This document shows positions 757 through 23,500 of a stretch of DNA of 32,000 nt, piece by piece. Every line of letters starts with the position of its first letter. Positions within the stretch are counted from its first letter, which is position 1. This DNA comes from Marinomonas maritima. GTDB taxonomy: Bacteria; Pseudomonadota; Gammaproteobacteria; Pseudomonadales; Marinomonadaceae. The translations under genes were made by a program, and so were the position numbers. Where the stretch lies: the NCBI RefSeq assembly GCF_024435075.2, contig NZ_JAMZEG020000002.1:1063484-1095483 (forward strand). The letters run 5' to 3'. Under the pieces are notes generated by a model, which saw nothing but the letters and a program-made list of their open reading frames with translations, did no database searches and was not told the origin of the DNA.

Positions 757-831
757 CCCCTTATCATTGCTGTAGAAAGGGAGTAGTATGCATAACTCGT
801 TCCAATTCATTCAAATAAAAAGAGTTGCTCT

Positions 832-2307: not shown

Positions 2308-2324
2308 ACGGAAACCATTTCATC

Positions 2325-2774
2325 ATGTCCTTGAAATCATTATTAAAAGCTGAGCTCGTTTTGGCGAAGCAAGATATTGTTAGTAAAAAACGAGTTTTAG
2401 AAAGTATCGCCGACATTGCATCCAATCGGCTGCATTGCAATAACGAGGCCGTTTATGACGCCCTATTAGGACGAGAAAAGCTTGGAAGTACAGGCATAGG
2501 CAATGGCATAGCGATACCTCATTGCCGCCTAGAGTCTGCAAACCATACCGCCATTGTCGTGATGTCATTACAAGCTCCGATAGATTTTGACTCGATTGAT
2601 AAGAGAGCCGTTGATCTTATATTCGCCTTAATCGTTCCGCCTAATGAATGCGATCAACATCTTGCAACATTGGCCCAAATCGCAGAATTAGCTCAATCGC
2701 CTGAAGCGCTCGACAAGCTACGAACCGCTCAAACCAACGAAGATCTATTTAATATTTTTGACTCATTAATATAG
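2325..2774 (+). CDS. ptsN: Nitrogen-related PTS IIA-like protein PtsN (EIIA-Ntr)
   Basis: 149 aa. Carries the phosphorylatable His motif GIAIPH (His66). Located directly downstream of rpoN, as in the canonical rpoN operon. Confidence 0.9.
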   Translation: MSLKSLLKAELVLAKQDIVSKKRVLESIADIASNRLHCNNEAVYDALLGREKLGSTGIGNGIAIPHCRLESANHTAIVVMSLQAPIDFDSIDKRAVDLIFALIVPPNECDQHLATLAQIAELAQSPEALDKLRTAQTNEDLFNIFDSLI

Positions 2775-2784
2775 GAAGTAAAGC

Positions 2785-3054
2785 ATGCAGGAAGAGTCCA
2801 TCACCATCATAAATAAACTTGGCTTGCATGCTCGCGCTGCTGGCAAATTAGTGGAAACAACGTCACGCTTTTCTTGTGATATCACCATAGAAAAAGACAG
2901 TCGTAATGTAGACGGCAAAAGTATTATGGCAATGATGATGCTTGCCGCTGGAAAAGGAACGAACATTCGAATCAAAACCAATGGAGAAGATGAAAAAGAG
3001 GCAATCAAAGCCGTTGTTGAATTAATTAACAATCGTTTTGGTGAAGACGAGTAA
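2785..3054 (+). CDS. npr: HPr-like phosphocarrier NPr (PtsO)
   Basis: 89 aa. HPr fold signature NKLGLHARAA with His15, and GKSIM with Ser46. AGGAAG RBS at 2773-2778. Confidence 0.9.
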   Translation: MQEESITIINKLGLHARAAGKLVETTSRFSCDITIEKDSRNVDGKSIMAMMMLAAGKGTNIRIKTNGEDEKEAIKAVVELINNRFGEDE

Positions 3055-3061
3055 CCCGACA

Positions 3062-4420: not shown

Positions 4421-4426
4421 GTTCCC

Positions 4427-4963
4427 ATGACAGACTTTGATCAACTTGAAAATGACGACGAACTCCCTAAAAGCAAATCCCAAGTCAAACGCGAAATGGA
4501 TGCCTTGCAGGAAGTTGGTAAAAAGCTATTAAGCCTGAGCAAAAATCAGCTTAAAAAAATTGAAATGTCTGACACATTAAAAAATGCCATTGAAGAGTCT
4601 GGACGCATAAAGCAAAATGAAGCGAAAAGAAGGCACTTACAATACATCGGCCGAGTAATGCGTACAGAAGATCACGAAACGATAGCACAACGTGTCGCTT
4701 TACTTGATACAACATCAGCAGCCTATAACAAACTATTTCATCAACTAGAAATAAAACGCGATGCGCTCATTGGCGAGAACAGTAAAGAAGTCTTGTCTCA
4801 ATATTTAGATGACAACCCTAATCTGGAAGAGATTCAGTTACTTAGGCAGCTCATTCGACTTTCCCAAAAAGAAGCATCACAAGATAGCAACACGTCTAAT
4901 CGTAAAAAGCTCTTCCGCCTTTTACGCGAAGTTGAGGAAAAGCGTCTTGGTTTAAAAGACTAA
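4427..4963 (+). CDS. yjgA: YjgA/DarP family ribosome-associated protein (DUF615)
   Basis: 178 aa. The acidic N-terminus followed by SKSQVKREMDALQEVGKKLL and RRRHLQYIGRVMR resembles E. coli YjgA (SKSEIKRDAEELKRLG..., RRRQLQLIGKMLR). Confidence 0.85.
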   Translation: MTDFDQLENDDELPKSKSQVKREMDALQEVGKKLLSLSKNQLKKIEMSDTLKNAIEESGRIKQNEAKRRHLQYIGRVMRTEDHETIAQRVALLDTTSAAYNKLFHQLEIKRDALIGENSKEVLSQYLDDNPNLEEIQLLRQLIRLSQKEASQDSNTSNRKKLFRLLREVEEKRLGLKD

Positions 4964-5023
4964 TGCGAAACCGCATTAAGTAACATATCTCTTCCTAAAA
5001 TGCGTCGACTATTATTGTTAAGC

Positions 5024-5444: not shown

Positions 5445-8400
5445 TTATTTGTCTGTCATTAACCGCATAATGTGTTTTGCCCCTTCCCCCTGTAAAATAG
5501 AATAGTGATCTGCAGTAATGCCGTGATACTGGATTTGACCAAGATATGGCTGCCAACTGGCTTTAACTCTTTCATCATCTATATGCTGGGTTGCTATACA
5601 AAGTAACGTGTTAGCGGCAACCTTCCCTTGGGGCTGAAACGCACTAATCGCTGCCGCATTTTTTCGACATGCCGTTATGACCCGCTCAATGTACCATTGC
5701 GCCTGACTTCTCTCCTCCTGCTGAGATTGTCGTTTTGATAGTGGATAGAGGGTGTTAGCCACCTCTTCAGGCGAACTTTTAGGGTTAAGCTTTCCCTTCA
5801 AACGTGGGTATTGTTGAATGATTTCATCAATAAACACTTTATTATCCAAAACTGGCCCTGAGTTCTGAACGCCGCTCAGTGTAGGCGGATCAATCATGAC
5901 TAAAGGCACTGATTGCCCCAGTTTTTCCAGCATGCGCGTCATTTGCCACGCGATAAATGCGCCAAAAGACCAACCAATAATACGCACAGGTTGATAGGAT
6001 TGAATGAGATCGACATAGTGCTCCGCCATCGCTTCAACTGTCATCATCTGCGCTTGTGGTGTATTCGGTGACAGCAAGGGGTCTCTAATACCATAAATGG
6101 CTCTGCCATCAGGCATCACATCAATCCATTCCCTATAACCCATAAGATCTCCGCCAATGGGATGGATCACAATATCACAGCCTAGTGAACCATCTCCTTC
6201 TTTCAGGCATGTGATAATCCCCTCCTCCAAATGGCTTATCACATTCGCCTCACTTGATGTACTAAGTACCTCTTCGATACGGCGAATGGTCACATTTTGG
6301 GTGAGATCCGCGAGTCTCACTTTATTCGGAAATAGGACATTAATACCATCGAATAAATCCAACAGTGTTAGCGAATCCCCCCCCAAGTCGTAAAAACATT
6401 CGTCTTCATCAACCTCGTCAAATCCCAAAATATCGGTAAAAAGAGAGCTAAGATAGACAGAAGTCGACATGTCTTTTGAGTGGTTCTTCAGACTATCGGC
6501 AACGTTAGAATTGCCTGCATGCAGAGTCGAGAAAAAGCGCTTTGCATTTTGATGCGCCAGAGGTGATATCAAATACTGAGCATCACCACCGTTCACAAGA
6601 GTATCTAATAATGCAACACCTTGAGCAGGTGAAATCGAAAAGTCGATCTCCTTAACGTGTTCGGCCATTCCTGTACCTCGCCAGGTTGGCCAATTAATAC
6701 TGATAAATTGAGGACCATCTATACGCTGATTTTGCATCTTGGCGTATAAATCTAAAAAGTGATTGGCAGCACAATAATCTGTCTGTCCCGCAACCCCATG
6801 CACCGCCGACATTGAAGAACAATAAGCGATAAATTCGGGTTCCAATATCAATAGTTCCGAATCAATATTAATGGCTCCGAGAATCTTAGCGGCCATATTA
6901 GCCGTTGCCGCTCCAGGCTCCATCAATCGTATCATTCCTCCTCCCGCCGACCCTGCTGCGTGGATAATACCTGTTACCTTACCAAACTGACCCAATACTT
7001 GGTTGGCCACATGCACCATATCTTCGCGTTTTGACACATCGCAGCGTAATTGCTGTATTGATTTTCCGGGATGAAGAATGGTCTCTGTAGCCGTTCGTGA
7101 AAGTAAAATCACGCGGGCGTCTCTAGTTGCCTGCAAATGCTCAGCAATAATTTGACCTATCCCCCCCGTTCCACCCGTAATTAAGTAAACGCCATCACTA
7201 ATAAATTTTTTCGAAGGTGACAAATATTGAGGTAGCGTTTGATATTCTTTGCGCCAAACGTACCGACCTCTTACAGCAAAATGGTACGCGTCATCCGCCG
7301 GATTCTGCTCAAGTCCTTCAATAGCGTACAGTAAATGCTCAGAAGATAGCGCTGGCAGTATATCCAATACCCTATACTCAATGCGCTCAAGCTCTAATGG
7401 GATAGTTTGTGCCAACCCTAGTAACAAACCTATATTGGGATTAAGGGTTTCTTCACCCAATACATTGGCACTACCAGAAACGACGTTAATCAAGAATAAA
7501 GGTTGCCGTTGTGGTCGCTGTTCCCAAACCTGTAGCAGAGTAACAATGGATAACAAAACCTCGCCAGATCCCATATGCATTGGATTTCCCTCTGGATCTT
7601 GGTCACCAAATGTCATATTCACTATCGTCAGAGGCTGGCTAAATAAAGACAGAACTGGCAACCGCTCAATAGCCGATGAAATACCATCGATGTATTGAAC
7701 CTGATGCCCATTAGCTCGCAAACCACTTGTTACACTTTTACCCCGTTCGTGAATATCATCTATCACTAAGTACTGTTTTTGGTTAACGGAATGCCTCTGA
7801 ACGCTATAAGCCCTAACCCACTGCTCCTGCATCAACCACTGTGATTCCGGAAGCGGATCAAAAGACGCTTGCTCTGGTAACACGTCAACACTACCGAGCT
7901 CACTCTGATCACAGTGCCATTTACTAAGGTACGTTTGGCAGTTAAAGGAAAAACTGGCTGCATCCCAAGCAGGTGCCTCACTAGCGGGTCTATAATCTTC
8001 TGGCATTGAACTCAATATGGCATGTGCATTGGTTCCACCCATACCGAAACTGCTCACGCCGGCGAATCTATTCGCCCCTCTCCACGGCCTGCTGGTACTA
8101 TTGAGGTAAAACCTTGACGCACTGAAATCTATATTGGTATTGGGAGTATCAGCCCATAAGGTAGGAGGAAGAACTGAGTGATACAAAGAAAGCGCCGTGC
8201 GGATAAACCCTGTTACGCCTGCCGCCGACCCTAAGTGCCCCATCTGACTTTTGACCGATCCCAACGCGCAAGTTCCTGAAGTTTGTTGCTGGTTGCTATT
8301 TTCCGCAAATGCATCGCTTAGCGCTTTCATTTCGATAGGGTCACCCAACTCTGTGCCAGTACCGTGTGCCTCTACGTATGAAATCTGCTCACTGGTCACG

Positions 8401-11400
8401 CCCGCATTACGCTGCGCTTGCAGCAATACATTTATTTGCCCTTGCACTGAAGGGGCGTAATAGCTCACTTTATCATTGCCATCATTATTAATGGCACTCC
8501 CTTTGATGACGGCATAAATGCGATCGCCATCCGCTTTCGCCCTAGTGAGTAGCTTTAACACGACGATACCCACACCATTGGCAGGTACCGTTCCACTTGC
8601 ACCTTGGCTAAACGGTTTACAATGACCGTCACGAGAAAGGATCATTCCTTGACGATAATGATAGCCTTCAAGCAGCGCCATATCTGCATTGGTTCCCCCT
8701 GCAAGACACACCTCACTGTCACCACTTCGTAGTTGTTGACAAGCTTGGTGAATCGCAACGAGTGAACTCGAACACGCTGATTGTACTGTGATGGCCGGGC
8801 CTTTTAAATTTAAGTGATACGCTAGTCGAGTCGCTAGGTGGTCCTTCTCATTAAGTAGGGAAAGCTGGTAACGATCCGGTGAATCACCTTCGGTGGAGCG
8901 TTCAATAATGCGCTGCTGATAACTGTTGTCACTGGCACACATCACCACGCCTATCTTGTGGTTAGACGAGTCTGGTGAAATACCGGCATTTTCAAGTGCA
9001 TGCACCGCACTCATTAATCCGTGCCGATGTTGAGGGTCCATTAATTTAGCTTCTTGATCAGACAAGCCAAAATAACCGGGGTCAAAATCAGCCAACCCAC
9101 TCATACTCGATATAACGCCCATCCAGTTATCATCTTGATGAGCTGAGGAGTCAAACGTTTCAATGCATTCCTTACCCGACTTAATGGCCTGCCAAAACTC
9201 CGCCAAATTATCAGCACCAGGCAGGCGCACCGCCATACCAATCACCGCTACCTCATCTTGATAAGTCGATTGCATTGGCGCTTTATGATGCACCGGCTGG
9301 CTTTCTTCCAACTGTCGATTCGGGTAAAGATTTTTTTGTAGGTGCTGGGCAAGAGTTGAAATAGATGGGTAATTAAAAAGATCCACCAAAGCAAGCACTT
9401 GGCCGTCGGGCATAAGGCGATTGTCTTTGACGAGCTGACCGTGCACTTTCATCAATAATAGGGAGTTTGCGCCAGCTTCAAAAAAACTTTTTTCCAAGTC
9501 AATCGAATAACCGAGTACGGAGGTAAACGCGGTATTAATGATGGTAGAAATCATGTCAACATTGAATATATCAACGGCTAAGTTATCTCTTGTTTTACGG
9601 ATCGCCTTCGATGGTGTCGAAAAATCGGGAGACGGAAATGCTGCTCGATCAATTTTACCATTGTTTGTTATTGGGAAGGCTTCGACACAAATGCATAAAG
9701 CCGGCACCATGTAAGCAGGTAATGCCGCCTTGGCCATTTCAGACAGTTCTAAGGGCAGCTGTTCATTCCCTTGTTTAGATTTAACATAAGCAATTAACAG
9801 TTGTTCGCCATGCGATGCGGTATGTGTTGTAACAATGCATTGTTCCACATTTTTATGCTGGCAAAGACAATTTTCGATTTCACCTAATTCGATCCGAAGC
9901 CCATTAATCTTAACTTGAAAATCTTTGCGGCCGATAAGCTCAACCACACCCTCTGGCAACCACTTAGCTAAGTCACCACTTTGGTACATTCGCTCACCAT
10001 TAATTGCAAATGGATCGACCGAGTATCTTTCATTGGTTAACGTAAGGTTATTGAGATAACCTCTGGTCACATTTTCCCCCGCGATGTACAGTTCACCAAC
10101 GATACCAATAGGCACCATGTTTTTGTGTTCGTCCAAAATGTAAAGTCGGTTATTGTCGAGGGGCTTACCGATATGGATTCGATCAGTATCTAATTTAATT
10201 TCAGCACCAGAGCAATAAACGGTGGCTTCTGAAGGTCCGTATAAATTAAAAAGCCTCGCATCATTGTCACCACCAAGCAGTAAATCTCGTAATTGATTCG
10301 TTAAATGGTCGCCTCCGGTGATCATTCTTAAACGGTCAGTGGGTTGCCAACCAAAATCCATTAGCATCCGCCAAGTCGCTGGCGTAGCTTGCATGATAGA
10401 AATGTCTAAATGTTTTTGGCACGCAGCAAGTTTGGCAGGAGTATGTACCTCGTCCCAATCTAAAATGGCAACTTTCGCCCCGCAAATAAGAGGGAGATAA
10501 ATTTCCGTGACATGAATATCAAAACTCAAAGAGGTAATTGATGGAATGGTATCTTGTGCCGAAAAACCCAACATATCCTTTAATGAAAACAAAAGGTTAC
10601 TGATATTTCTGTGTTCGATCATTACCCCTTTGGGTTGACCTGTGGTCCCGGACGTGAAGATAACAAAGGCGAGATTCTTTGGACCGAAAGACTGTGGTCT
10701 AATTGGATCCTGAATCGGTTGTGAACCTATCGACTCCCATAATAAATCATCTAATAATAAGACATCATTAACGCCGTCACCCAAGCCCTCCTTAATGGCT
10801 CCACAAGCTAACAGGATATCCGCTCCGCTCTCTTGGATTATATTTTTTAACCTGTTAACTGGGTTGCGCGAATCCAATGGTAAGTAAGCGGCTCCAACTT
10901 TTAATATAGCGAGAACCCCGAGCACTGTATTCAATGACCAAGCACCTACTAGACCAACAATATCACCTGGACCTGCGCCTAAATCGATTAGTTTATGGGC
11001 TAATTTATTAGCGCGAATATTAAGTTCTTGGTAAGTAAGGTGATGCCGACGATTATCACCTTCAAGCCATACACAAGCTATTTCGGCTGGCGTACGCTGA
11101 ACCTGAGCTTCAAAAAGGTCAGGGAAAGTAAGCTCCTTCGGGTAATCAACCTGAGTATCATTCCAACGCTTTATTTTCGCCTGTACGTCATCTGACACTA
11201 AAGCAATACGGCTAATATCTTTGTGTGGAGCTGCCAATACGTCATCGATAATGTCGTGAACGCTATCATTGGCTAATAAACCTGCATGAAGATGACTCTC
11301 TTCGGCCGAATGCGTTAACTGGCCTAGATGCGTTGAAAACTCATCCGTAAACGAAAGCAAATAGGATTGAAATTTGGATAAAATCCAATCCGCCACTTCG

Positions 11401-14400
11401 CTGTTGAGCAAAGACGTATTGTATTCCAAACAAAGGCCAGCCGAGCCGTTGTTCTCGGTAATAAACAAAGTCATTGGAAATTTGGCCTCACCGTTAAATC
11501 CGGTTTCAGCCTGAATGTTTGTCAATGGAAACTGAAGGTGACTTAGATCTGTGTTTTCGAGCACCATCATACAGTCAAACAATGGATTCATTGACGTTCG
11601 TCGCGGTAACATTGAAACAATATCTTCAAAATCAATATCTTGATTCTTCTGTGTTTCGACTACATGTCGGTGAACGGCCTGGATATAGTGATCGACCGTC
11701 ATCATGGGATTGATATCCGTATGAAAAACACTGGTGTTGACGAACATTCCTATTAGCTGTTCATAATCACCTGCCCCTCTATTTGCGATGGGCGAACCGA
11801 CAGAAATAACATCACGCTTAAAATATTGGCTTAATGCCAAACTATAGGCAGCAAGGGTATAACTGAAGAGGGTAACACTTTCATGCTTAACCGTTTCTTT
11901 TATGGTTTGCCATTGCGCAGAGTCAATGTGTGATGTTGCAATCGCACCTAATTGCGCCGACGCGCCGGTTTGCGCAAATAACGGTGCATTATCCGCTACA
12001 TTATCAATTCTATGTTGCCAGTACTTATGCTGAACAAGAAGCTCATTTGACTGTCTGTATTCACGTGAAAAGGCGCAAAAATCATCATAAGTATTACGCA
12101 ATTCAGGCAGGACTAATGGCTCACCCGTCACTTGCGCCAAATACAATTGGCTTAACTCTTCAAGCAACACATTCAGACTCCAACCATCAATAATAAGGTG
12201 ATGAAAGGACATGGCGAGGATTTGTGTATCTTCTCCCTGAATACTAAATAGGCGAAGATTAGCTAATACCCCCTTTTCAATATCAAATACTTGGCAGGAA
12301 AACCTATTTAACGCTACCAAGAGATCTGTTCTCTTTATCTGTTGCTGGTTTATCTTAACTAGCCCTGCGTTCATCTCACGAGTAACGGCGAATATCTCTC
12401 CATTTTCCAATTCAAAACAACTTCTGAGGGTAGCGTGCCGCTCAACCAGATGACGCCATGCTTCTTGAAGAGCACCATATTCCAGCGGTTTGTCTAAGTA
12501 AAAAAAATACGGTGCGCTATACGCGCTAGACAAAGGATTCAAATAGTACAAAAAAGCCAACCTTTGCTGCTCTGCCGACGCTAAATATTTTGCAGGCGTA
12601 ACTTTTGCTAACTCAGTGAGCTGATGGCTAATCTTTGGTTTCTTTTCAAGTATCGCAAATAACTCCAGCAAAGAAATAGGCTGCAAGATTTCACCGACAG
12701 TAACACCGATTGAAAGTCGATTTTTCAGAGCAGAAGCGAGTCTCATGGCTCTTAATGAATCGCCACCAGATTCGATAAAGGTTAGATCTAAAGCCGGCAG
12801 TGAGGAAATCCCCAATATCGTTGCGCATTGATTAGCAATGGCTAATCCTCTATCAGGCGCGCATTGCAGGATTAATCTTTCTTTTTCTACCAAGCTCATG
12901 GTCGCGGATAACAGCTCTTCAGACTGCATCACGCTCAATGCTTTTCTGTCTAGTTTACCGTTTGCGTTTAAGGGGATATGAGTAACAGAAAAAAAGCGGT
13001 GTGGCGTCATATAATCAGGTAATTGTGAACGCACATGGCCACGTATTTCGGACTGGGTTAACACAACATCAGAAACCAAATAGGCATGTAAATCCGCACT
13101 GTTATTTTCTTGGACAACCGCCAATGTTACCGCTTGAGTCACCTTAGGGTGAGAAAGTAATTGATTGTCTATTTCGGAAGTTTCGATCCGGTGACCACGA
13201 ATTTTTACTTGTTGGTCGGCGCGACCTAAATACTCGATCTGCTTATTCCCATTAATAAGCGCTAAATCCCCTGTGCGATACCAGCGTTTTGATGGATCTA
13301 ACCAAGACAAGTGAACAAATTTCTCACTGGTAAGCTTAGCATCCTTGTTATAGCCTTGAGCAAGCCCCTCTCCGGAAATATATATTTCACCTTGCTCCTC
13401 CATTTCCGCCAATCTATCCTGACCAACAACAACGATAACTTGAGTACGCTTAATACTTTGACCAATGGGTACTCTGCCAACTTTTATATAATGATCGACC
13501 AACGCACTGTCTAGTGGGTAACACGTACTAAATGTAGTGCACTCTGTTGGACCATAACCGTTATACAGCTGAGAAGTTAACTGACCACCAATACGTTGGC
13601 ATGCTTGATAATATACTTTAGCGGATAGTGGCGTGAACGCCTCCCCCCCTACTACTACATGTTTGATCTTGGTGACTTGCTGTACTTTTACTTCCACCAA
13701 AAGGTTAAATAGTGACGCGGTGATGAAAGCCACGTCCAAATCGCTGTTTTCAATTTTTTCGGCAAGCCGATCCGTATCGGTCAGTTCTGCCTGACTAAAC
13801 ACCACCAACGTGGCGCCATTTAACAGTGATCCCCAAACCTCAAAGGTCAACGCATCAAAAGTAGGATTGGCGAAGTTGGCCATCCGATCCCCTGCCGAAA
13901 GGGGCACATAAGTTGGCTGGCAAGCTACATTTAAAACCCCGCGCTGTTCAACTAAAACACCTTTGGGTTCCCCGGTAGACCCCGAGGTAAAAAAGATACA
14001 AGCAAGTGGATTGGTTTGTTTAAGAAGGCGCACATCAGCCCCCAGCTCGACAGACTCAATTAAGCTTTCTGCCTGAAAAGCACGGATATTTTCCTGATGA
14101 TAATCGTCAACGTTATTCGCTCCCGTAACGATACACTTAGCATCCGATAACGACAGAACGCGTCGACGCCGGATAAGGGGCGCGGTGGGATCAAGAGGCA
14201 CATAACAGGCGCCACACTTAAGAATCGCCACCAAGGTAGCCGTCAACAATAGTGATCGAGGCAGACTAACCGCTACCTGACCACCACCGATAACCCCATG
14301 ATTAATAAGGTTAAACGCGATGTTATCCGACAGTTTATCCAACGATTGATAGCTGGTTAGTTGCTCACCCTCCTCAACGGCGATGTACTCTCCATATTGC

Positions 14401-14483
14401 TGTACGATATGGCGAAATTGCTCGACAATAGAGACTTCAGCCCCTTCTTCTAACAGTTTGTCAAAATTTCTGATGTCTTCCAT
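5445..14483 (-). CDS. Hybrid NRPS-PKS megasynthase (NRPS/PKS-3), 3012 aa: A-T-C-A-T-KS-KR-ACP-TE
   Basis: ATG at 14483 and TAA at 5445-5447. All core motifs were read by hand; see the domain entries below. Confidence 0.97.
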   Translation of the reverse strand: MEDIRNFDKLLEEGAEVSIVEQFRHIVQQYGEYIAVEEGEQLTSYQSLDKLSDNIAFNLINHGVIGGGQVAVSLPRSLLLTATLVAILKCGACYVPLDPTAPLIRRRRVLSLSDAKCIVTGANNVDDYHQENIRAFQAESLIESVELGADVRLLKQTNPLACIFFTSGSTGEPKGVLVEQRGVLNVACQPTYVPLSAGDRMANFANPTFDALTFEVWGSLLNGATLVVFSQAELTDTDRLAEKIENSDLDVAFITASLFNLLVEVKVQQVTKIKHVVVGGEAFTPLSAKVYYQACQRIGGQLTSQLYNGYGPTECTTFSTCYPLDSALVDHYIKVGRVPIGQSIKRTQVIVVVGQDRLAEMEEQGEIYISGEGLAQGYNKDAKLTSEKFVHLSWLDPSKRWYRTGDLALINGNKQIEYLGRADQQVKIRGHRIETSEIDNQLLSHPKVTQAVTLAVVQENNSADLHAYLVSDVVLTQSEIRGHVRSQLPDYMTPHRFFSVTHIPLNANGKLDRKALSVMQSEELLSATMSLVEKERLILQCAPDRGLAIANQCATILGISSLPALDLTFIESGGDSLRAMRLASALKNRLSIGVTVGEILQPISLLELFAILEKKPKISHQLTELAKVTPAKYLASAEQQRLAFLYYLNPLSSAYSAPYFFYLDKPLEYGALQEAWRHLVERHATLRSCFELENGEIFAVTREMNAGLVKINQQQIKRTDLLVALNRFSCQVFDIEKGVLANLRLFSIQGEDTQILAMSFHHLIIDGWSLNVLLEELSQLYLAQVTGEPLVLPELRNTYDDFCAFSREYRQSNELLVQHKYWQHRIDNVADNAPLFAQTGASAQLGAIATSHIDSAQWQTIKETVKHESVTLFSYTLAAYSLALSQYFKRDVISVGSPIANRGAGDYEQLIGMFVNTSVFHTDINPMMTVDHYIQAVHRHVVETQKNQDIDFEDIVSMLPRRTSMNPLFDCMMVLENTDLSHLQFPLTNIQAETGFNGEAKFPMTLFITENNGSAGLCLEYNTSLLNSEVADWILSKFQSYLLSFTDEFSTHLGQLTHSAEESHLHAGLLANDSVHDIIDDVLAAPHKDISRIALVSDDVQAKIKRWNDTQVDYPKELTFPDLFEAQVQRTPAEIACVWLEGDNRRHHLTYQELNIRANKLAHKLIDLGAGPGDIVGLVGAWSLNTVLGVLAILKVGAAYLPLDSRNPVNRLKNIIQESGADILLACGAIKEGLGDGVNDVLLLDDLLWESIGSQPIQDPIRPQSFGPKNLAFVIFTSGTTGQPKGVMIEHRNISNLLFSLKDMLGFSAQDTIPSITSLSFDIHVTEIYLPLICGAKVAILDWDEVHTPAKLAACQKHLDISIMQATPATWRMLMDFGWQPTDRLRMITGGDHLTNQLRDLLLGGDNDARLFNLYGPSEATVYCSGAEIKLDTDRIHIGKPLDNNRLYILDEHKNMVPIGIVGELYIAGENVTRGYLNNLTLTNERYSVDPFAINGERMYQSGDLAKWLPEGVVELIGRKDFQVKINGLRIELGEIENCLCQHKNVEQCIVTTHTASHGEQLLIAYVKSKQGNEQLPLELSEMAKAALPAYMVPALCICVEAFPITNNGKIDRAAFPSPDFSTPSKAIRKTRDNLAVDIFNVDMISTIINTAFTSVLGYSIDLEKSFFEAGANSLLLMKVHGQLVKDNRLMPDGQVLALVDLFNYPSISTLAQHLQKNLYPNRQLEESQPVHHKAPMQSTYQDEVAVIGMAVRLPGADNLAEFWQAIKSGKECIETFDSSAHQDDNWMGVISSMSGLADFDPGYFGLSDQEAKLMDPQHRHGLMSAVHALENAGISPDSSNHKIGVVMCASDNSYQQRIIERSTEGDSPDRYQLSLLNEKDHLATRLAYHLNLKGPAITVQSACSSSLVAIHQACQQLRSGDSEVCLAGGTNADMALLEGYHYRQGMILSRDGHCKPFSQGASGTVPANGVGIVVLKLLTRAKADGDRIYAVIKGSAINNDGNDKVSYYAPSVQGQINVLLQAQRNAGVTSEQISYVEAHGTGTELGDPIEMKALSDAFAENSNQQQTSGTCALGSVKSQMGHLGSAAGVTGFIRTALSLYHSVLPPTLWADTPNTNIDFSASRFYLNSTSRPWRGANRFAGVSSFGMGGTNAHAILSSMPEDYRPASEAPAWDAASFSFNCQTYLSKWHCDQSELGSVDVLPEQASFDPLPESQWLMQEQWVRAYSVQRHSVNQKQYLVIDDIHERGKSVTSGLRANGHQVQYIDGISSAIERLPVLSLFSQPLTIVNMTFGDQDPEGNPMHMGSGEVLLSIVTLLQVWEQRPQRQPLFLINVVSGSANVLGEETLNPNIGLLLGLAQTIPLELERIEYRVLDILPALSSEHLLYAIEGLEQNPADDAYHFAVRGRYVWRKEYQTLPQYLSPSKKFISDGVYLITGGTGGIGQIIAEHLQATRDARVILLSRTATETILHPGKSIQQLRCDVSKREDMVHVANQVLGQFGKVTGIIHAAGSAGGGMIRLMEPGAATANMAAKILGAINIDSELLILEPEFIAYCSSMSAVHGVAGQTDYCAANHFLDLYAKMQNQRIDGPQFISINWPTWRGTGMAEHVKEIDFSISPAQGVALLDTLVNGGDAQYLISPLAHQNAKRFFSTLHAGNSNVADSLKNHSKDMSTSVYLSSLFTDILGFDEVDEDECFYDLGGDSLTLLDLFDGINVLFPNKVRLADLTQNVTIRRIEEVLSTSSEANVISHLEEGIITCLKEGDGSLGCDIVIHPIGGDLMGYREWIDVMPDGRAIYGIRDPLLSPNTPQAQMMTVEAMAEHYVDLIQSYQPVRIIGWSFGAFIAWQMTRMLEKLGQSVPLVMIDPPTLSGVQNSGPVLDNKVFIDEIIQQYPRLKGKLNPKSSPEEVANTLYPLSKRQSQQEERSQAQWYIERVITACRKNAAAISAFQPQGKVAANTLLCIATQHIDDERVKASWQPYLGQIQYHGITADHYSILQGEGAKHIMRLMTDK
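5448..6191 (-). other. NRPS/PKS-3 C-terminal thioesterase domain
   Basis: IVIHPIGGDLMGY. GxSxG is present as GWSFG, with the Ser2839 codon at 5967-5969 verified. Asp in VMIDPP and His in TADHYSIL. Confidence 0.9.
6249..6476 (-). other. NRPS/PKS-3 acyl carrier protein domain
   Basis: FYDLGGDSLTLLDLF. The Ser2704 codon at 6372-6374 was verified. Confidence 0.88.
6654..7193 (-). other. NRPS/PKS-3 ketoreductase catalytic subdomain
   Basis: NADPH motif TGGTGGIG. Ser in CSSMSA. YCAAN is present, with the Tyr2570 codon at 6774-6776 verified. Confidence 0.85.
7194..8003 (-). other. KS-to-KR interdomain region (probable KR structural subdomain); contains no AT
   Basis: About 270 aa. It has no GHSxG, no AT-type (Y/H)ASH motif and no AT arginine motif. 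Confidence 0.6.
8004..9257 (-). other. NRPS/PKS-3 ketosynthase domain
   Basis: EVAVIGMAVRLPGA. The active-site motif is QSACSSSLVA, with the Cys1904 codon at 8772-8774 verified. EAHGTGT (His2040) and KSQMGHLGSAAG (His2083) complete an intact Cys-His-His triad. Confidence 0.92.
9339..9581 (-). other. NRPS/PKS-3 thiolation domain 2 (feeds the KS)
   Basis: FFEAGANSLLLMKVH. The Ser1674 codon at 9462-9464 was verified. Confidence 0.88.
9639..11141 (-). other. NRPS/PKS-3 adenylation domain, module 2
   Basis: Cores LTYQELN, LKVGAAYLPLD, FTSGTTGQPKGV, SFDIH, NLYGPSEAT, YQSGDLAKW, GRKDFQVKINGLRIELGEIE, NGKIDRAAF. The hand-read pocket DITQIGLVYK is Gly-like (tentative). It is a paralogue of the NRPS-2 module-3 A domain. 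Confidence 0.88.
11304..12596 (-). other. NRPS/PKS-3 condensation domain (LCL-like)
   Basis: HHLIIDGWS at aa 761-769. The C1-like motif is SAEQQRLAFLYYL. Confidence 0.88.
12654..12881 (-). other. NRPS/PKS-3 thiolation domain 1
   Basis: FIESGGDSLRAMRLA. The Ser576 codon at 12756-12758 was verified. Confidence 0.88.
12939..14441 (-). other. NRPS/PKS-3 adenylation domain, module 1 (second initiation module)
   Basis: Cores LTSYQSLD, LKCGACYVPLD, FTSGSTGEPKGV, FDAL, NGYGPTECT, YRTGDLALI, GRADQQVKIRGHRIETSEID, NGKLDRKAL. The hand-read pocket DAFFVGGTFK is close to the Val code DAFWIGGTFK. This assignment is tentative. Confidence 0.88.
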
Positions 14484-14537
14484 TATATTATCTACTCATC
14501 AAGTCTAAACGATTAAAACGACACTCGCTGTCACAGC

Positions 14538-17500
14538 TTAATTACACAGTTCCCGCTGTATAAACTGAGCAACCGATAAGATACTGGGCGCCTCCAACAT
14601 GGTTGAGTGATCGGCGTCTACGTACTCAACCAGAAACTCACCACACGCCTTATTCTCCCAATAACCCTTCATTACCTTCAGGTAGTCTGCGGGTTTATCT
14701 TGGGTCGCTATAATCACCGCTGTTTTGGCCTTGGTATTAGCCAGCGTCATCGTTTTCATCGTATTGAGATGATGATTGTATATTCGGAAATACCGATCAA
14801 TTTGTTGGTCGTCGATGCCAGGATACATTCCGTTGTAGGTCACCAATTTTTCTCTAAACACATCACTACTGACGGGTTTAATTTTGTCCCGGATACTCTG
14901 ATCATCGCTTCCTTCTGTGTCCAACAACAGCGCCATCGAATCGATACCACGCGCTTGCAGTATTCTTGCCATCTCATAGCTGACATACCCTCCATAGGAA
15001 CAACCCACAATGGTATGTGATGTGGTCAAAAGGTGTTCTATAAGCGAGATATAGTGGTTGGCCATTGCCTGCACGTCTTCTAGGAACGGCTGGTCAGAAT
15101 CGACGCCTTGAGCCTGAATACCATACACGCCAAAGTGACTAGGCAGCTCTTTCGCCAAGGCAAGATAGGCAAAAGCAGTCCCACCACCGGGATGAATGCA
15201 AATGACATTATGAACGCCATCACCTCGTCGAAACTGGATAAGATCTTGGCTGGGATTCACTGTCGATTTAGTCGTCGTTGCATCGGAGCGTATCAGCCAA
15301 GCTAATGCTTCGATGCTGGGGTTTTTAAGCAACTCTGATACCGGTATTTGTACTGAAAGTTGTTTCTCTATTTCATGGACTACTTTAATCGCCGAAATCG
15401 ACGAGCCGCCAATTTCAAAGAAATTATCTCGAATGCCAATCTTCTTTTTCAACAAAATATCATGCCAAATTTGATACACTAGCATCTCAATATTATCTCG
15501 CGGGCTAGCGGTATTTACCTGTTTTGGCACTTGATTTTTCAATGCGGCTTCGTGCAATGCAGCATGATCAAGCTGGCCGCTAGCCGTCAGTGGTAACACC
15601 TCGAGCATGACATACTCATCGGGAGTCACAACACTTGATAGATCACGAGATAACATACCTTTTAATGACCCCCTTAGTTCATCGATTTCTGCCCGCGATA
15701 ATTTTCCGCCTTGCTCAGGCACTTTTCCTACGATAAACACCACTAGCTGCTTTTCCCCTTCCCGCGCTACCATTTCCACGGCAACTTGCTCTACTTTGGG
15801 ATGTGAAAGAACCCGTTTTCGGATAGCAGATAAGTCAATACTAACTCCTCCAATAGAGACTGAATCACCCATTCTACCAACCAGCACAAGATCGCCAGTT
15901 TTCATATATCTAACCAAATCGCCGGTACGATACAGTTTTTCGTCCGAGTTCTGATTAAAAGGATTCTCTATGAATGCTTCCGCAGATAAATCAGGTCGAT
16001 TAAGGTATCCCATTGCGAGCCCGTCACCTCCCAAATAAAGTTCGCCAACTTGACCGAAAGGAACCAATTTATTGTCAGGTGAAAGTACATAAGCACTGGT
16101 ATTAGTGATAGGTCTACCTATTGGGTAATATGACGCTAATTCAGTGATTTCAAAGCTGGTGCTGAATACTGTATTTTCCGTCGGCCCGTAAACGTACAAT
16201 AAGTGGTTTGGTTTTCCTTGAGTCAATAGGCTGTCTAGCTTAGCAGAATCGATTTCTTCTCCTCTAAAGAGCAGGGTATCCAGAGCAGCGAAAACATCGG
16301 GATTAAGCGCTAACAATTGGTTAACCTGCGCCGTCGGCATAAACATGACATCGATGGCGTGCTGTTCAATACTATGGGATAAAGCAGCGCTGTTTTTCAT
16401 TACACTGTCTGACAAAATGGCCAGCTTCGCACCGTTAAGCAGCGCCCCCCATATTTCAAACGTAGATGCATCAAGTGAAAGATCACTGATCTGCGCGATC
16501 ACTTGGTCTTGACTAAGCTTTACATAATGACTGTTTTTGACTAAGCCTAGGATTGCTCGATGCGCAACCATAACCCCCTTAGGTTTATACGTGGCGTCAG
16601 AGGTAAACATGACGCATGCAGGTTGCATTTTAATATCACAAGACTGATCGGCTATATTCTCGCTCGACAATGTGCAAGGCACTTGCTTTATGTCCACTAA
16701 CTGTACTGGATAGCACTCACCTATATCAGCATCATCACTCAGTAAATGTGTCATCTGACAGGTTTCCATCATATAACTCAACCGGCTTAGAGGAGATTTA
16801 GAATCCATGGGGACATAAGTGGCACCTAACTTAAGAATGGCCAGCATACTCACTATCATGCTCGAAGAACGTTCGCTAACTATGCCGACATACTGATTCG
16901 CTTTTACCCCCTGCAACACCAGATAACGCGCCAATTGATTGGCCTTGATATTGACGTCGTCATACGTTAATTCTGCCTGTTCATCAATTAAGGCCACACT
17001 GTCTGGGGTATGTTTAACATAATGTTCAAACCATTGATGAATTCCCATCCCCTCTACTTGGTCGTAGGTGCCATTCAATTCATTTATTTGAAAGTTCTGC
17101 TCTGCATTAGAGAGCAAGGGAACCTCTTGGACACAAGAATGTGGGGTAGCTACCATTCCTAACAAGATGTTCTTAATATGCTTTTGCAGCTCACTCAGTT
17201 GCCAGTCAGCTAAAAGACCAGGTTGAGATAACAGCTTAATTTCCAACACATCACTTTTAGCGGCGATAACCGTTAGCGCATAGTTAGTTTGTTCATTAGA
17301 CGCAAGCTCATTCATCTGCAATCTGTTTTTATTCGAAGCGGTTCCCTGTAACTCATCCACAGGGTAGTTTTCAAACACCACGATGGAATCAAATAGATTT
17401 CGACCTTTGACCTTAGATAATTGCTGAATATCTTGTAGTGGTAAATAACCATACTCTTCGAGGTCAATATGCCGCTTATGAATAGACCTAAGCCAATTTG

Positions 17501-20500
17501 TTACGCTGACCCCTTTTGGAACCTTCATCACAACGGGTAACGTATTAATAAACAAACCCACCATGGTTTCAATTCCCGGTAGCGCCGCAGGGCGACCGGA
17601 AACAGTGACGCCAAAAAGGACGGTTTCATCACCGCTATAGTGGGACAAGACTAACCCCCATGCCGCTTGAACTAAAACATTCAAGGTACATTGGCTATTT
17701 TTTGCCAGCGCTTCCAATGCCTGTGTTTCTTGCGAGCTGAACGTCAGAGTCGTCTTAGTCGAGAGCTCATCTCGACATTCGCTCTCAGGAAGAAAACCAC
17801 TTGGCAACGTCGTCGGTGACTCAATATTTGCCAGTGATTCAGTCCAAAATAACTGCGCCGCTTGAGTATTTTGACACGCTAGCCATTCAATATACTGGCC
17901 ATAAGGGATGACTGCCGGCAAATCACTCTGCTTACCCGTCAGAAGTGATTGGTAAAAATGGCTCAAATCACTCCAGATAATAGGAAGACACCAACCGTCC
18001 ATCAACGCATGGTGATTGGACCAAATCAGCTTAAACTGGCCGGAATCCATTTCAATGCAGGTAAATCGCATTAATGTTGGCAGCGTCGCATCAAAACCAC
18101 AACTTTTGTCTTGCGTCTGTAGCGCCTCTATATTTGCGCTTTGTTGGCTTTCGCTTTGCCCTTTCAGGTTCACATCTCGCCAGATTATTTCAGTCGTATC
18201 CGTTACTACTTGACGCCTTACCCCATCATTCGCCAGCAAGAAAGCAGTACGTAAAATATCATAGCGTGCTATCACCCTTTGCCACGCCTGTTTCAATGCA
18301 CTGGGATCAATCTGCGCTAACGAAACGGTCAATTGCGTAACGTAAGCCTCTTTCGCTAGCTCGCTGTGGTACAACAAACCTTGCTGCATACCGGTAGCTG
18401 GGTAGACGTCAGTGATTCTCACGTTGTTAGCAGACAAGGACAAACTCCAGTTATCCAAGTCCTGTTGTTTCACTTTTGCTAAAGGCACGTCGGCTGGCGT
18501 CAACCTCACTGCATCTCGTGAGGAGCAGTGTTCAATGATTTGTTGCAATGCGCGAGTGATCGCGTCGATCATGTCTGAAACCGCTGCTGGTGAAAACGCC
18601 GCCAAATCAAAATTGAAATCAAAGCTTAGTTGGCCATTTTTCACTCGACCATTAAGGGCAATGGCATAGCTTTGCATATGATCGAAGCTACCATCCTCTC
18701 CTGTCGCTTGCGATGAAAATGAAAACGCTGAATCTGCCTCCATCATTTGATCTAATTGACCAAAGTAGTTAAATAGGATTTCTGGTGAAGCCTCTCGATG
18801 ATCTAGCTGTTCAGGAGAAAACCAATTTAACACGCCATAACCCATGCCCTTGTTTGGCACGGCACGTATTTTTTCCTTTACCGCACAGATCAGATCGCCT
18901 ATTTCACCCCGCTCTGCATTCAGAACAAGTGGGTAATTGGAAGTGAACCAGCCAAGGGTTTGGCTTACTTCTAAATGACAATCAAGTCCGTCACGTCCAT
19001 GCGTTTCCAATGTCAATGAAAGGGGGGCATAGTCATCGTTGTATTGCCCTCTCGTTTCCCGCCATTCGTCTAAGCCAAGTAATAATGCCGATAGCAGAAG
19101 CTCTTGGACTTCAGTACCGTATGCCTGTTGAGTGTTTTTTAGCAGAGTCTGGGTTTGCTCTAGGGTTAACGTCAGCAATTTTTCGCCGCGCTGCCCTTTG
19201 TTATGAGCAGCACCATCTTTTGGCATTGATCGCACCGCCGCCAAATCCGAGAGCGATTTTTGCCAGTACGGCCGTTCACTTTCAACAGCCTTCATAACAG
19301 GATCACTGGTAAGCCATTGGCCCCATTGCTGATAGGATGCTGTTTTTTCCTCCAAAACAAGAGGTAGCCCTTGCTTAAATTGCCTGTAAATCAGCTGTAG
19401 ATCATCAAGTATAATCCGCCAAGACACACCATCTACAACCAAGTGATGAATTACTAGAAATAGCTTATTACCGTCCTCCGACGTTAACAACACCGCCTTT
19501 AACATGGGGCCTTGCTCAATATTGAGGCTCAGCTGAGCCCGCTGGCATTGTGCTTCTAAATCAGCCGAATCTTTGCTGTCATAACGAGTTTGCATGACAG
19601 TATTTAACTGATTTTCGGTACTAATAGGCTCAAAACTTGCCTGCCAGTGAATAGATTCTGCGTCTTTAGTAAACTGAAGTCGAAGTGCATCATGTCTTCG
19701 ATAAAGGGCTGTCACTGTTTGCTCGAGCAATGTGAACGAAAAATCAGCGGGAACATTTAACAATATTGATTGGTTAAAGAGATGAAGGTTCTTTTCTTTA
19801 CCATGGTGAAAAAACTCATGTTGAATCGGTAACAAAGGTAGCTTGCCAGTCACACTCACCTGAGGGGCTTGCTCTTGCTTTTTCATCGTAATATGTGGTG
19901 TTAACGAAAAAATAGTAGGATTATCAAACAGTTGTTTTACGGTGAAGTGAAGACCCAACTTTGCTGCGCGAGACACCGCCTGCATGGACATAATAGAATC
20001 GCCACCTAAGGCAAAGAAATTATCATGCACACTCACGGGGTCACATTTAAGCAATTTGGACCAGATCCCAGCTATCTCAATTTCGATACTTGTTGAGGGT
20101 GCCACGTGATCTGTAATTTGGCTAACGGCTCTTGGTTTGGGCAGCGCTTTTTTATCAATTTTCCCATTATTAGTCAGCGGCCATGCATCCAGTCTCGCCC
20201 ATAATACTGGTGTCATGTAATCGGGCAGTTGATGACTAAGCTCACCGATCAAACGTTGAAATAATTCTTCGTCTGGCAATGCAGGGGTATCTTGTTTGGC
20301 TATTACATAAGCAACCAACTGGCGCTTACCTGAAGCGGTCCCCTGTACCATCACCAACGCCCCTTCCACCTCTTTGCAGACATTCAATTGCTGCTCAATT
20401 TCACCTAGCTCTACGCGGAAGCCACGGATTTTAATTTGCTCATCACTACGACCAATATAAACAAGATCGCCGTCGCGTTGTCGGCGCACTAAATCACCAC

Positions 20501-23500
20501 TGTGATAGAGGCGCTCACCTGGTGTGAAGGGGCTTGGAATAAACCTTTGCGCGGTTAACTCGGGCTGGTTCAAATAACCACGTGCAATCCCCGCACCTGC
20601 GAGATAAAGATGACCGGCGACGCCAAATGGAACAAGATTCAATGCATCATCAAGCACATAGGTCTTAACCTTATCGATTCCCTGACCAATATTTCGCGGG
20701 TCATCCCCTTGTTGATACTGGTGAACCGTAGAGCACACACTATTTTCTGTGGGTCCGTATTCGTTAAACAGGCGAGTGTGAGGCACAAAGCGCTCAATCA
20801 CCTCACTTGATATGGCCTCTCCGGACAAAACAATGCGCGGTATCAAAGGGGCATTTTCTGGTAACACCAATTCAGCAAGTAACACTGGCGGTATATAGGC
20901 CACAGCGAATCGCTCCGGCTCTGCGAGATACTTCTGCAGCGTCTCTAATTGAAACCTTTTCTCTTCCGATACGATATGCAGTGGCCGACCACTGTAAAAT
21001 GAGCCCCAGATGCTGGCCACAGACGAATCGAATGAAAAATTTGTGAGATAAAGAAAGCTGGCATTTGCATAGACATCACTTGCCGATAAATCGAGATATT
21101 GGTATTGGCACTTGATATAGTTGACCACCCCAACTTGTTCAACCAACACGCCCTTAGGCCTCCCGGTCGATCCCGATGTATAAATAATATAAGCCAAATC
21201 CGACACACTTGGTTTTGACAACAGCGTCGGTTTTTCCTCTGAATAATCCTGCAAAGAACAGGCATCTACATCCAACACTAAACAGCCATTAAAGGCAGGG
21301 GGTTCGGCACTAAACAGATGTAACTGGGCCAATAATACCGGCGCTTTACTGTCCTCAAGTATATAAGTCAATCGGGACAATGGCGCCTTTGTGTCGATTG
21401 GAAGATAGGCACCACCCGCTTTTAAGATAGCCAGCATGGCAATGATCATTTGCGGCGAGCGCTCAATGAACACAGCAACAGGCACGTTAGCGCCTACCCC
21501 TAAGATGACCAAGTGATGACTGAGCTGATTGGCTTTTTTATCCAACTCTGCATAGGTCAGTCTCTCACCTTCATAGTCTAACGCCACATGATTAGGCTGA
21601 CGCTCCAATTGTCGATCAAACAAATCCACTAGTAAGGTTTGGTCGACATCCAGAATATCTCCTTTATTGGCGAACAAGACACTTGGCTGCTCTTTTTCTG
21701 GTATAAGCGCCAACGCCATGACATCAGCATTAGACTGGCTCAGCATTTGTTGTAATAAATAGTCAAAATGACGCGCCAATGCTTCGATTGTTTCTCGCAT
21801 AAACAAATCTAACGCAAAATTCCAGCTCAGTCGTAATTGTCCGTTAACCACCCGCACACCAAGTGTAAGATCAAATCGAGCCTCTACGCTCGATGGCATT
21901 TGCGCAGTAAGGCGAGCATCTCCTAAGCACAAAGAGTCACCAGAAGAGGATTGCTCCAAGACCATCATGATTTGAAAAATGGGATGGTGGTTGAACCGCC
22001 GAGGAATATTATTATCCTGTATTACTTTCTCAAATGGTAACGATTGGTGAGCAAAGTCATTTAACAAATCGGCATGGTTTTGCGACACCAATTGAGCGAA
22101 ATCAATCTCCTTTGGTAAGCGAGTCCGCAGTGCTATATTGTTCACAAAAAAACCAATAAGCCCATCAAGATCTGGCCGTTCACGGTTAGCCACTGGCGTG
22201 CCTATGACGATGTCTTTGCTACCAGAGTAGCGAGCCAGCAAGACAGTAAAGGCACTGTACAAAACAGTAAAGGGGGTTGTACCTTGCGTTTTGGCATACG
22301 CCAATACTTGATTGGATAAGTGAGGGCTTAGATCAGAATAATGCGTCTCTCCACGGTAGCTAGCGTTTGCTGGGCGAGAAAAATCAGTGGGTAAACTATG
22401 AGTCTCTGGAACATCCACCAACCTTGCCCGCCAATACTCTAAAGAGGCAAGGTGTGCCGGTGATTCTTTGCTAAATCGTTCACGCTGCCACACCGCATAA
22501 TCCGCGTATTGAAAAGCTAAAGGTTGAAGAGCTAAAGGCACTTTTTCGATAACCTTGTGACCTACTAATGCCGAGTAGCATGATTGCAACTCCTCAAACA
22601 AAATGTCCACTGACCATCCATCGATGGCAATATGATGAATGGTAAGCAACAGCACATGCTGGTTTTCACTTAGCGTTACCAGTCCGGCGCGAAAAACCGG
22701 ACCATTAGCCAAGTCAAAGGGCTGGTCAAAAAGCATTTTCTCAAAATCAGCCAGTGCAGATTTGGGGTCGGATAACGACTGTGCATCAAGATGCTGCAAA
22801 ATCCCCGTGACAGGCGGCATCACATGTTGCACTGGCTCCTGCTCTGTCATCTTATACACTGTACGTAATACATCATGACGATTGACAATAAAATCAAGAC
22901 TTTGTGATAAGGCACTCACCTCGATCTGGCCGCTTATATGGTACATAAGGGGGATGCCATAATATCGCCCATGGGTCTCGATATTATCCAATGTCCACAA
23001 TCTCTGCTGCGAGTAAGACAAGGCTACACCATTCGTCGTATCCACTTTTTTTATCGCGAAGGTCTGTGTCGTTTTTTTATCGGCACTCAGCTCATCGCAT
23101 AAACGGGCTAATCGGCGGATCGAAGGCGCCTCAAATAAGACTTTTAGCGTTAGCGTGATTGCCAACGCCCTCCCCAATCGACTGATCATCTTGATGGCTA
23201 ACAGAGAATGACCACCCAGAGTAAAGAAGTTTTGATCTATATCTGGATCATCAATAGAGAGCAGTTCAGACCATGTAGCAGCGATTACTTTTTCTGTTGC
23301 TGTTGTCGCCGAGCAATGCTCCTCGCTAATGTGTGAATACGTTGGTATCGGTAACGCGCTGCGATCAACCTTGCGATTATAGGTAAGGGGGAATTCAGCC
23401 ATAACCACAAAAAATGTGGGTGTCATATAATAGGGTAGCGCTTCTGACAAAAGAGCTCTAAGCGCCTCCACCAGCGGTTGTTCACTGTGCTGGCTTTTGA

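Follow-up and report, generated by a model that had tools for sequence, protein, structure and literature searches.

The DNA analysed here is a 32,000-nucleotide stretch of the Marinomonas maritima genome (contig NZ_JAMZEG020000002.1, positions 1,063,484 to 1,095,483), referred to below as the window. Its minus strand carries three large genes, N1, N2 and N3, the products of which, in M. maritima RSW2, are exact matches to WP_255895946, WP_275565071 and WP_275565070. N1 and N2 encode nonribosomal peptide synthetases (NRPSs) that form a first assembly line (line 1) of five modules including an epimerase, and N3 encodes a hybrid of NRPS and polyketide synthase (PKS). The element in question is the junction between the last two genes, at which N2 closes with a thioesterase (TE) and N3 restarts with adenylation (A) and thiolation (T, carrier) domains. 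It is proposed, with a probability of roughly 78%, that this TE/A-T junction corresponds to the known signature of detoxin/rimosamide-like (DRL) gene clusters and that the locus represents a DRL core in M. maritima.

Gene and domain organization of the locus

The domain content of the three proteins was derived from Pfam searches and internal BLAST comparisons (Table 1, in which C, E, KS, AT, KR and ACP stand for condensation, epimerization, ketosynthase, acyltransferase, ketoreductase and acyl carrier protein). Catalytic motifs are intact in every C, E, T, KS and KR domain, the exception among all domains being A5, the last A domain of line 1, and no frameshifts or stops were found across 26 kb. 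Both TEs possess complete catalytic triads, formed in TE1 by the Ser of GCSYGG (tcc, 14999-14997), the Asp of LLLD and the His of DADHSTML, and in TE2 by the Ser of GWSFGA (codon 5969-5967), the Asp of MIDPP and the His of ADHYSIL. The A domain of N3 begins about 16 residues past the start codon and the C-terminus of N2 is the TE itself; therefore, neither a docking domain nor a C domain would fit ahead of the hybrid.

An earlier note on this DNA, prepared from the sequence letters, had described a five-module line spread over N1 and N2 that ends in a complete TE, a 54-nt spacer with no convincing terminator, and a following gene that starts with A-T, has neither a docking nor a C domain at its N-terminus and carries a TE of its own, with two initiation modules and two release domains in one operon. 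The domain calls, the two A-starting lines, the two triads (including the Ser codons that it had assigned to each TE) and the spacer analysis presented below agree with this description. On the other hand, the family signature of the junction, the probable inactivity of A5, the one-base overlap (TAATG) between the N1 stop and the N2 start, and the TubC_N docking domain of N2 had escaped it.

The N2 stop codon (TAA, 14540-14538) and the N3 start codon (ATG, 14483-14481) enclose the spacer of 54 nt, in which a TGA is found in frame 12 nt upstream of the ATG. A scan for terminator-like sites found none in this spacer, and its fold was no better than that of shuffled sequence (z = +1.09). The only strong terminator-like hairpin, with a 14-bp stem and a T-rich tail, is located about 175 nt past the N3 stop (5270-5238, minus strand) and likely corresponds to the end of the operon. 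Because the spacer is free of terminator and structure, the strong hairpin occurs solely after N3 and the equivalent spacers of relatives range from -4 to 66 nt, N1, N2 and N3 are predicted to constitute one transcription unit. A candidate internal promoter within the spacer (TTTAGA-16-TATAAT) was discarded, as its -10 box overlaps the N3 start codon and such matches were not above those obtained in shuffled sequences. Both of the Marinomonas clades described below (spacers of loci L002, L003 and L001 compared) share a short TTAGAC-like motif, placed some 25-35 nt before the N3 start codon; outside this motif the spacer is unalignable between the two clades.

Extraction of the A-domain specificity codes was controlled with GrsA, which returned DAWTIAAICK. 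The A domains of N1 yielded DAEHVGSITK and DAACLGLVDK; the substrate calls for A1, A2, A4 and the A3/A7 pair are low-confidence assignments based on the Stachelhaus table. An Rfam search of the window gave no RNA family match.

Table 1. Positions of the genes and domains of the M. maritima locus within the window
Feature	Position	Strand	Observation
N1	26426..31654	-	1742 aa; NRPS A-T-C-A-T; start of line 1; C-terminus ...MEEGEI
N2	14538..26426	-	3962 aa; TubC_N dock-C-A-T-C-A-T-E-C-A-T-TE
TubC_N-type N-terminal docking domain of N2, aa 3-52	26271..26420	-	PF18563, E = 5.9e-11
A3 of N2, aa ~530-1020	23270..24839	-	code DI[AT]QIGLVYK, as in A7
A5, last A domain of line 1, N2 aa 3133-3614	15585..17030	-	degenerate core motifs
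T5 carrier domain (GGSS), feeds TE1	15294..15488	-	motif reading
TE1	14541..15215	-	Ser codon 14997-14999
N2-N3 spacer, 54 nt	14484..14537	-	no terminator, no significant structure
N3	5445..14483	-	3012 aa; A-T-C-A-T-KS-(AT-less)-KR-ACP-TE
A6, starter A domain of the hybrid	12951..14435	-	code DAFFVGGTFK (code extraction)
A7, second A domain of the hybrid	9651..11114	-	code DITQIGLVYK (code extraction)
KS, intact Cys-His-His triad	7989..9257	-	SACSSS, EAHGTGT, SQMGHLG (motif reading)
KS-KR linker, AT-less, trans-AT type module	7194..7988	-	no Acyl_transf_1 match; omega 0.25-0.33
KR, predicted source of the beta-hydroxyl	6678..7193	-	GGTGGIG; YCAAN (motif reading)
ACP of the PKS module (T8)	6276..6467	-	GGDS (motif reading)
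TE2, predicted releasing TE of the hybrid	5454..6170	-	Ser codon 5967-5969 (GWSFGA)
Housekeeping genes	31..4963	+	lptB, rpoN, ptsN, HPr-like gene, mgtE, darP

TE1 and the hybrid synthetase in the context of the DRL family

The known DRL clusters include those of pseudovibriamide (ppp), pseudobulbiferamide (mbp), pseudotetraivprolide (pip) and chitinimide. In these systems the first TE links the upstream peptide, as an ester, to a hydroxyl of the Val/Ile-X-ketide bound to the hybrid, the second TE then hydrolyses the product, and malonate is provided by FabD acting as a trans-AT (PMC12828459). In Pseudomonas entomophila, deletion of the TE of PipB or substitution of its Ser2856 by Ala is reported to cause the loss of all full-length product, and the TE of PipC to release the pip product by hydrolysis (PMC12828459). 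For chitinimide, in vitro work is reported to have given the same result for the first TE (Niu et al., 2024, cited by PMC12828459 and PMC12911931). In Pseudovibrio the wild type contains the separate molecules PA and PC plus the ester-linked depsipeptide PB; strains without pppA form only the hybrid product PC and those without pppD only the heptapeptide PA (PMC11796379). This mechanism was worked out between 2016 and 2025, so the surprise offered by the M. maritima junction is limited.

The locus shares the central traits of this family. An NRPS with its own TE directly precedes the hybrid gene, the architecture of N3 is the same as that of MbpD and of the hybrids of Serratia and of loci L002 and L003, and N3 is homologous to the hybrids of known producers in a collinear manner. 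The code of its first A domain (A6) is also found in the hybrid of locus L088 and belongs to the same class as the codes of MbpD (DAFFLGITFK) and of Serratia and L003 (DAFFLGATFK); this class matched that of the first A domain of every hybrid checked. The A6 code, DAFFVGGTFK, is one that we take to be of the Val/Ile type, following the Stachelhaus table. The Val/Ile assignment of A6-type codes, which is a reading of the sequence code, also rests on PMC10616845.

TE1 is a member of the clade of DRL first TEs. In an alignment of eight first and six second TEs the two groups split cleanly, with identities of 34-63% among first TEs, across phyla, and of 16-25% between first and second TEs; the first TEs have motifs in common and a lid region about 30 residues shorter than that of second TEs. 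TE1 showed 41-46% identity to the first TEs of non-Marinomonas relatives (37% in the case of Serratia) and 19-24% to any second TE, evidencing that it is of the family's first type and not a generic releasing TE. When a plasmid collection was searched with T5-TE1, the best match was Streptomyces rimosus (45%). Microbulbifer followed with 43%, other Streptomyces, S. mirabilis among them, with 40-42% and Serratia with 35%; Bacillus and a second S. rimosus locus formed the next tier at about 28%. As ester transfer was shown for members of this clade, its position speaks against the alternative that two independent products are made, in which TE1 would hydrolyse or macrocyclize the line-1 peptide, TE2 would release a dipeptidyl-hydroxy acid and the operon would serve co-regulation only. 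We regard this alternative as unlikely, even though it is favoured by the complete triads of both TEs, by the accumulation of the separate halves PA and PC in Pseudovibrio (PMC11796379), by the observation that extended congeners were not detected in Microbulbifer despite the presence of mbpD, and by the TE of Vlm2 being the nearest solved structure to TE1 (E = 1.8e-16, in a sequence search that retrieved generic TEs for TE2 and does not discriminate function).

The assignment of the locus to the DRL family is further supported by the conservation of the junction, which is kept in ten further loci with a hybrid collinear to N3 in all of them. Like the junction, the catalytic triads of both TEs are preserved in distantly related bacteria. 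In Marinomonas primoryensis (locus L083) the spacer measures 54 nt, the same as in the window, and in L002, a metagenome-assembled genome (MAG) labelled Psychromonadaceae that is 83% identical, it measures 66 nt. A second Marinomonas clade, 43% identical, is represented by Marinomonas sp. SBI8L (L003, spacer of 30 nt) and by a Marinomonas MAG (L001, spacer of 27 nt). Beyond these, the junction was found in two high-GC assemblies (L088, with 66% GC and a 4-nt gene overlap, and L089, with 76% GC), in the plasmid of Microbulbifer sp. MKSA007 (mbpC/mbpD, spacer of 8 nt), in plasmid pQC19 of Serratia marcescens, and in each of S. rimosus and S. mirabilis. N3 is 31-34% identical to the hybrids of Microbulbifer, Serratia, S. 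rimosus, S. mirabilis and L088 over 82-97% of its length, with 49-53% identity to relatives' hybrids in the KS. The number of modules in line 1 is five in M. maritima, three in L088 and one (C-A-T-TE) in Streptomyces and Serratia, and the persistence of the adjacency of TE1 and the hybrid across phyla, with line-1 lengths of one to five or more modules, likewise argues against independent products. A word-indexed search with the A-T portion of N3 gave one informative Marinomonas match, the others being generic NRPSs with about 35% identity.

Selection on the individual domains was estimated by the Nei-Gojobori method for the window versus M. primoryensis and L002. Omega was 0.03-0.33 for every domain, with values of about 0.15 for C4, 0.17-0.22 for A5, 0.03-0.14 for T5 and 0.08-0.11 for TE1. 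Between the two Marinomonas clades (comparison with L003), T5 (61.5%) and TE1 (62.1%) are the most conserved domains, the others showing 37-59% identity, which argues against a dispensable mid-operon TE and, once more, against two unconnected products.

By homology to the characterized DRL systems, N3 would build Val/Ile-X and extend it with malonate supplied in trans, probably by the housekeeping FabD, after which the KR of N3 would reduce the beta-keto group. The window and the M. primoryensis flanks contain neither an AT domain nor an AT gene (the position of fabD is outside the window), which is consistent with malonyl loading by FabD. TE1 would hold the line-1 peptide as an acyl-O-Ser intermediate and transfer it to a hydroxyl of the unit still bound to N3, generating a branched depsipeptide, and TE2 would release this product by hydrolysis; attack of water at either TE would give the two halves as side products. 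The earlier note had speculated on such a coupling by one TE, for instance onto the hydroxyl made by the KR. The ester part of this idea gains support from the homologues, in which the first TE forms an ester with a hydroxyl of the hybrid's product; the passages available from this literature name that hydroxyl as the acceptor and do not state its KR origin outright, and we infer that in M. maritima the KR-made beta-hydroxyl would play this part. The same note had posed separate and joined products as alternatives, a choice that does not hold for Pseudovibrio, where both occur together (PA, PC and PB; PMC11796379).

Several observations weigh against this assignment. The second A domain of the hybrid (A7) has no code for proline, the residue from which the detoxinine-type unit of the family arises, its code contrasting with the DVQYVAHVVK of MbpD and the DVQFVAMVVK of Serratia. 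A TauD-type Fe/2-oxoglutarate dioxygenase is stated to be "present in all DRL BGCs" (biosynthetic gene clusters) in PMC12828459, and inspection of the window and of the 10 kb around the M. primoryensis cluster revealed none. tblastn gave no match to MbpH/I/J, the counterparts of the PipDFG/PppHIJ trio, in the window, in the M. primoryensis loci L081 and L083 or in L002 and L003; this trio, a GSCFA protein plus two proteins of unknown function, is described as frequent, not universal, and absent in some Pseudomonas members (PMC12828459). Moreover, identity to characterized relatives is in the range of about 31-45%, the M. maritima product is a prediction from the genes alone, and the degenerate A5 domain could impair line 1. 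As the dioxygenase and proline hallmarks are missing, the locus is classed as a DRL variant rather than as a plain member of the family.

Some of these departures are also seen among the relatives. The hybrid of L088 has a non-Pro code in its second A domain as well (DATKVGEVGK, Asn-like), and judging from the codes non-proline hybrids are present in at least two lineages. Locus L089 carries a GSCFA gene, and in L002, the relative with 83% identity, a TauD gene and a DUF6875 gene adjoin the hybrid; the DUF6875 protein was considered as a counterpart of MbpI/J and rejected, as it has no BLAST similarity to them. What is new in this locus is the existence of a Marinomonas variant with a five-module, epimerase-containing line 1, a non-proline hybrid, missing tailoring genes and a probably dead terminal A domain.

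The degenerate A5 domain and its putative replacement in trans

A5 departs from the consensus of functional A domains in several core motifs. Motif A3 (consensus TSGSTGxPKG) reads FTSDATYKPKG in M. maritima and FTSDSIDQPKG or FTPESTDQPKG in M. primoryensis and L002; motif A8 (GRMGDSVSIGGVSIDL) is devoid of its Lys and Arg residues; motif A9 is altered (LSSVVTP); and in motif A10 (SGQLDH) the lysine equivalent to K517 of GrsA is replaced by Gln (K517Q). In addition, the Gly at position 301 of the binding pocket is replaced by Arg (Arg or Lys across the clade). These losses are common to M. maritima, M. primoryensis and L002, and A5 is probably catalytically inactive in this clade. The counterpart of A5 is intact in L003 and L001, the relatives with 43% identity, with the code DAFFLGVTFK, which is nearly that of the A6 domain of L003, the two domains being 28% identical overall.

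A decaying cluster, in which the dead A5 would block line 1, the mid-operon TE would be a relic and N3 alone would be productive, has to be considered in view of the loss of the A3 glycines, the A8 Lys/Arg and the A10 Lys and of the Arg or Lys in the pocket, as well as of the accessory DRL genes missing from the window and from the 10 kb around the M. primoryensis cluster and the transposase remnants beside that copy. This explanation appears very unlikely, as the A5 lesions have been retained in common by M. maritima, M. primoryensis and L002 at dS values of up to about 0.6, purifying selection acts on every domain including C4, T5 and TE1 (omega 0.03-0.22), and the 26 kb have remained free of frameshifts and stops. 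Since A5, C4, T5 and TE1 are all under constraint, the module would still be in use.

T5 is probably loaded in trans instead, and the most plausible candidate for this task is A6, with which N3 starts and which has a matching Val/Ile-type code. Loading by A6 is plausible because the DRL mechanism already requires that N2 and N3 meet, and the near-identity of the A5 and A6 codes in the older L003/L001 clade suggests a redundancy that would have allowed the loss of A5. It can be hypothesized, although only tentatively and with the balance leaning against it, that a double coupling connects the two lines in the clade of M. maritima, M. primoryensis and L002, by esterification through TE1 and by loading of T5 through A6, and that their product is a DRL depsipeptide with a new, non-detoxinine core. 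The code for the second residue of the hybrid (DITQIGLVYK) is presumably Gly-like by the Stachelhaus table, and the core might contain a unit of the 4-amino-3-hydroxybutyrate type.

Lastly, the notion that TE1 acts as a surrogate condensation catalyst, passing the peptide onto the amine of Val-S-T6 of N3 to give one colinear amide-linked product, would accommodate the lack of an N-terminal C domain in N3 and the free amine of its first residue, and is hardly credible, having no precedent in the homologous systems, in which the peptide is ester-linked through a hydroxyl and the N-terminal Val/Ile of the hybrid is free.

Comparison with named systems, significance and surroundings of the cluster

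The systems most similar to the M. maritima locus by architecture include ppp and mbp, in which PppC/MbpC (TubC_N dock-C-A-T-TE) is followed within 8 nt by PppD/MbpD (A(Val)-T-C-A-T-KS-AT-less-KR-ACP-TE), so that MbpC plus MbpD equals the last module of N2 plus N3. Identities to mbp are 42.7% between T5-TE1 and the T-TE of MbpC, 52.6% in the KS and 37.6% in A6, which has the same code class, and a major facilitator superfamily (MFS) transporter and a phosphopantetheinyl transferase (PPTase) nearby are a further likeness to both clusters. In contrast, line 1 of ppp and mbp is seven modules long and includes domains for ureido formation, dehydration and thiazole formation, their hybrid has a Pro-type second A domain, and the TauD dioxygenase and GSCFA/PppHIJ genes are present.

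By their description in PMC12828459, pip and chitinimide, the DRL systems that have been dissected by experiment, follow the two-TE logic predicted for M. maritima, with FabD as trans-AT, and likewise have a line 1 without C-starter domain; they use Pro, the dioxygenase PipE, the N-acetyltransferase PipH and the acetylation complex PipDFG, none of which was found in or beside this cluster. The loci of S. rimosus and S. mirabilis (rimosamide/detoxin/miramide type) contain C-A-T-TE followed by a collinear hybrid, with 33% identity to the last module of N2 and to N3 and 40-45% identity between their T-TE and T5-TE1. They differ from the M. maritima cluster in GC content, in phylum and in having a line 1 of a single module instead of five, and the rimosamide, detoxin and miramide products contain Pro-derived detoxinine.

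In the biosynthesis of FR900359 by Chromobacterium vaccinii, the TE of FrsA, which belongs to a separate short NRPS line, transesterifies an acyl chain onto a hydroxyl of the product of the other line (PMC7794379), and Bode et al. cite this TE as comparable. The likeness is limited to the mechanism: FrsA, a C-starter-A-T-TE mono-module duplicated from its main line, acts on a released cyclic core, whereas neither line in M. maritima is C-starting or a mono-module.

DRL depsipeptides are natural "anti-antibiotics" that shield some bacteria from blasticidin S, and those of Pseudovibrio have an additional role in modulating motility and biofilm formation. The locus extends this family to Marinomonas, a genus unmentioned in the cited DRL literature. 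Altogether, the two-TE core appears to be portable, as the length of line 1 ranges between one and at least five modules and the PKS-extended residue is not always proline. A non-proline member devoid of the hydroxylase and of the acetylation genes would help to define the scaffold elements that are needed by the ester-forming TE and for bioactivity. If the inactivity of A5 and the loading of T5 in trans are true, the cluster would illustrate how two assembly lines can share an A domain in nature, which would be of use for NRPS engineering.

The neighbourhood of the cluster in M. primoryensis encodes an Sfp-type PPTase, a Cupin_8/JmjC protein, an MFS transporter, a protein of 441 aa and an open reading frame (ORF) of 75 aa. 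The 441-aa protein is encoded between the MFS transporter and N1 (L081 7643-8968, minus strand). It was rejected as an AT or a ligase, as its only match was a sub-threshold one to ATP-grasp R2K_3 (E = 0.03); nor does it show significant similarity to MbpH/I/J, with just a 54-residue match to the MFS transporter MbpG (E = 0.01). This protein might replace the missing tailoring genes. The 75-aa ORF was also called in the window (minus strand, 31773-32000), where its start coincides with the edge of the window, 118 nt from N1 on the upstream side, and where it has no family match; its identity to the M. primoryensis ORF, 76% compared with about 93% in the NRPS genes, casts some doubt on its being a genuine gene. 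At the other end of the cluster, M. primoryensis has a 187-aa ORF between N3 and darP (L083 19037-20372) that is absent from the window (4964-5444), where the gap between N3 and darP is only 482 nt and contains the hairpin described above.

The upstream flank of the M. primoryensis cluster (L081 1-9883) holds transposase/integrase fragments and a HigB/HTH toxin-antitoxin pair, and the opposite flank darP and mgtE; the L003 cluster adjoins TRAP transporter genes instead. Judging from these genomic contexts the cluster behaves like a mobile island, even though its GC content (about 0.44-0.46) is the same as that of its flanks. The L002 contig (CBDFNC010000004.1) bears the Psychromonadaceae label in spite of its 83% protein identity to the Marinomonas cluster and has a different neighbourhood (TauD, DUF6875), which points to either horizontal transfer or a misassigned bin.

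Differences within the synthetase genes were also noted. In L088 the single C-A-T-TE module at 4640-8698 is split inside the A domain into two ORFs of 792 and 537 aa, which would correspond either to a frameshift/pseudogene or to an assembly error. In the N3 homologue of L002 (9983-19744), C and A7 are separated by some 220 additional residues (aa ~1085-1300) that constitute a partial condensation domain, 45% identical to part of the first module of N2, and this segment looks like a recombination scar of a module exchange. In M. maritima, A3 of N2 and A7 of N3 share their unusual code and are 52% identical, compared with 26-36% for the other pairs of A domains, which suggests the copying of a C-A-T unit from one of the lines into the other.

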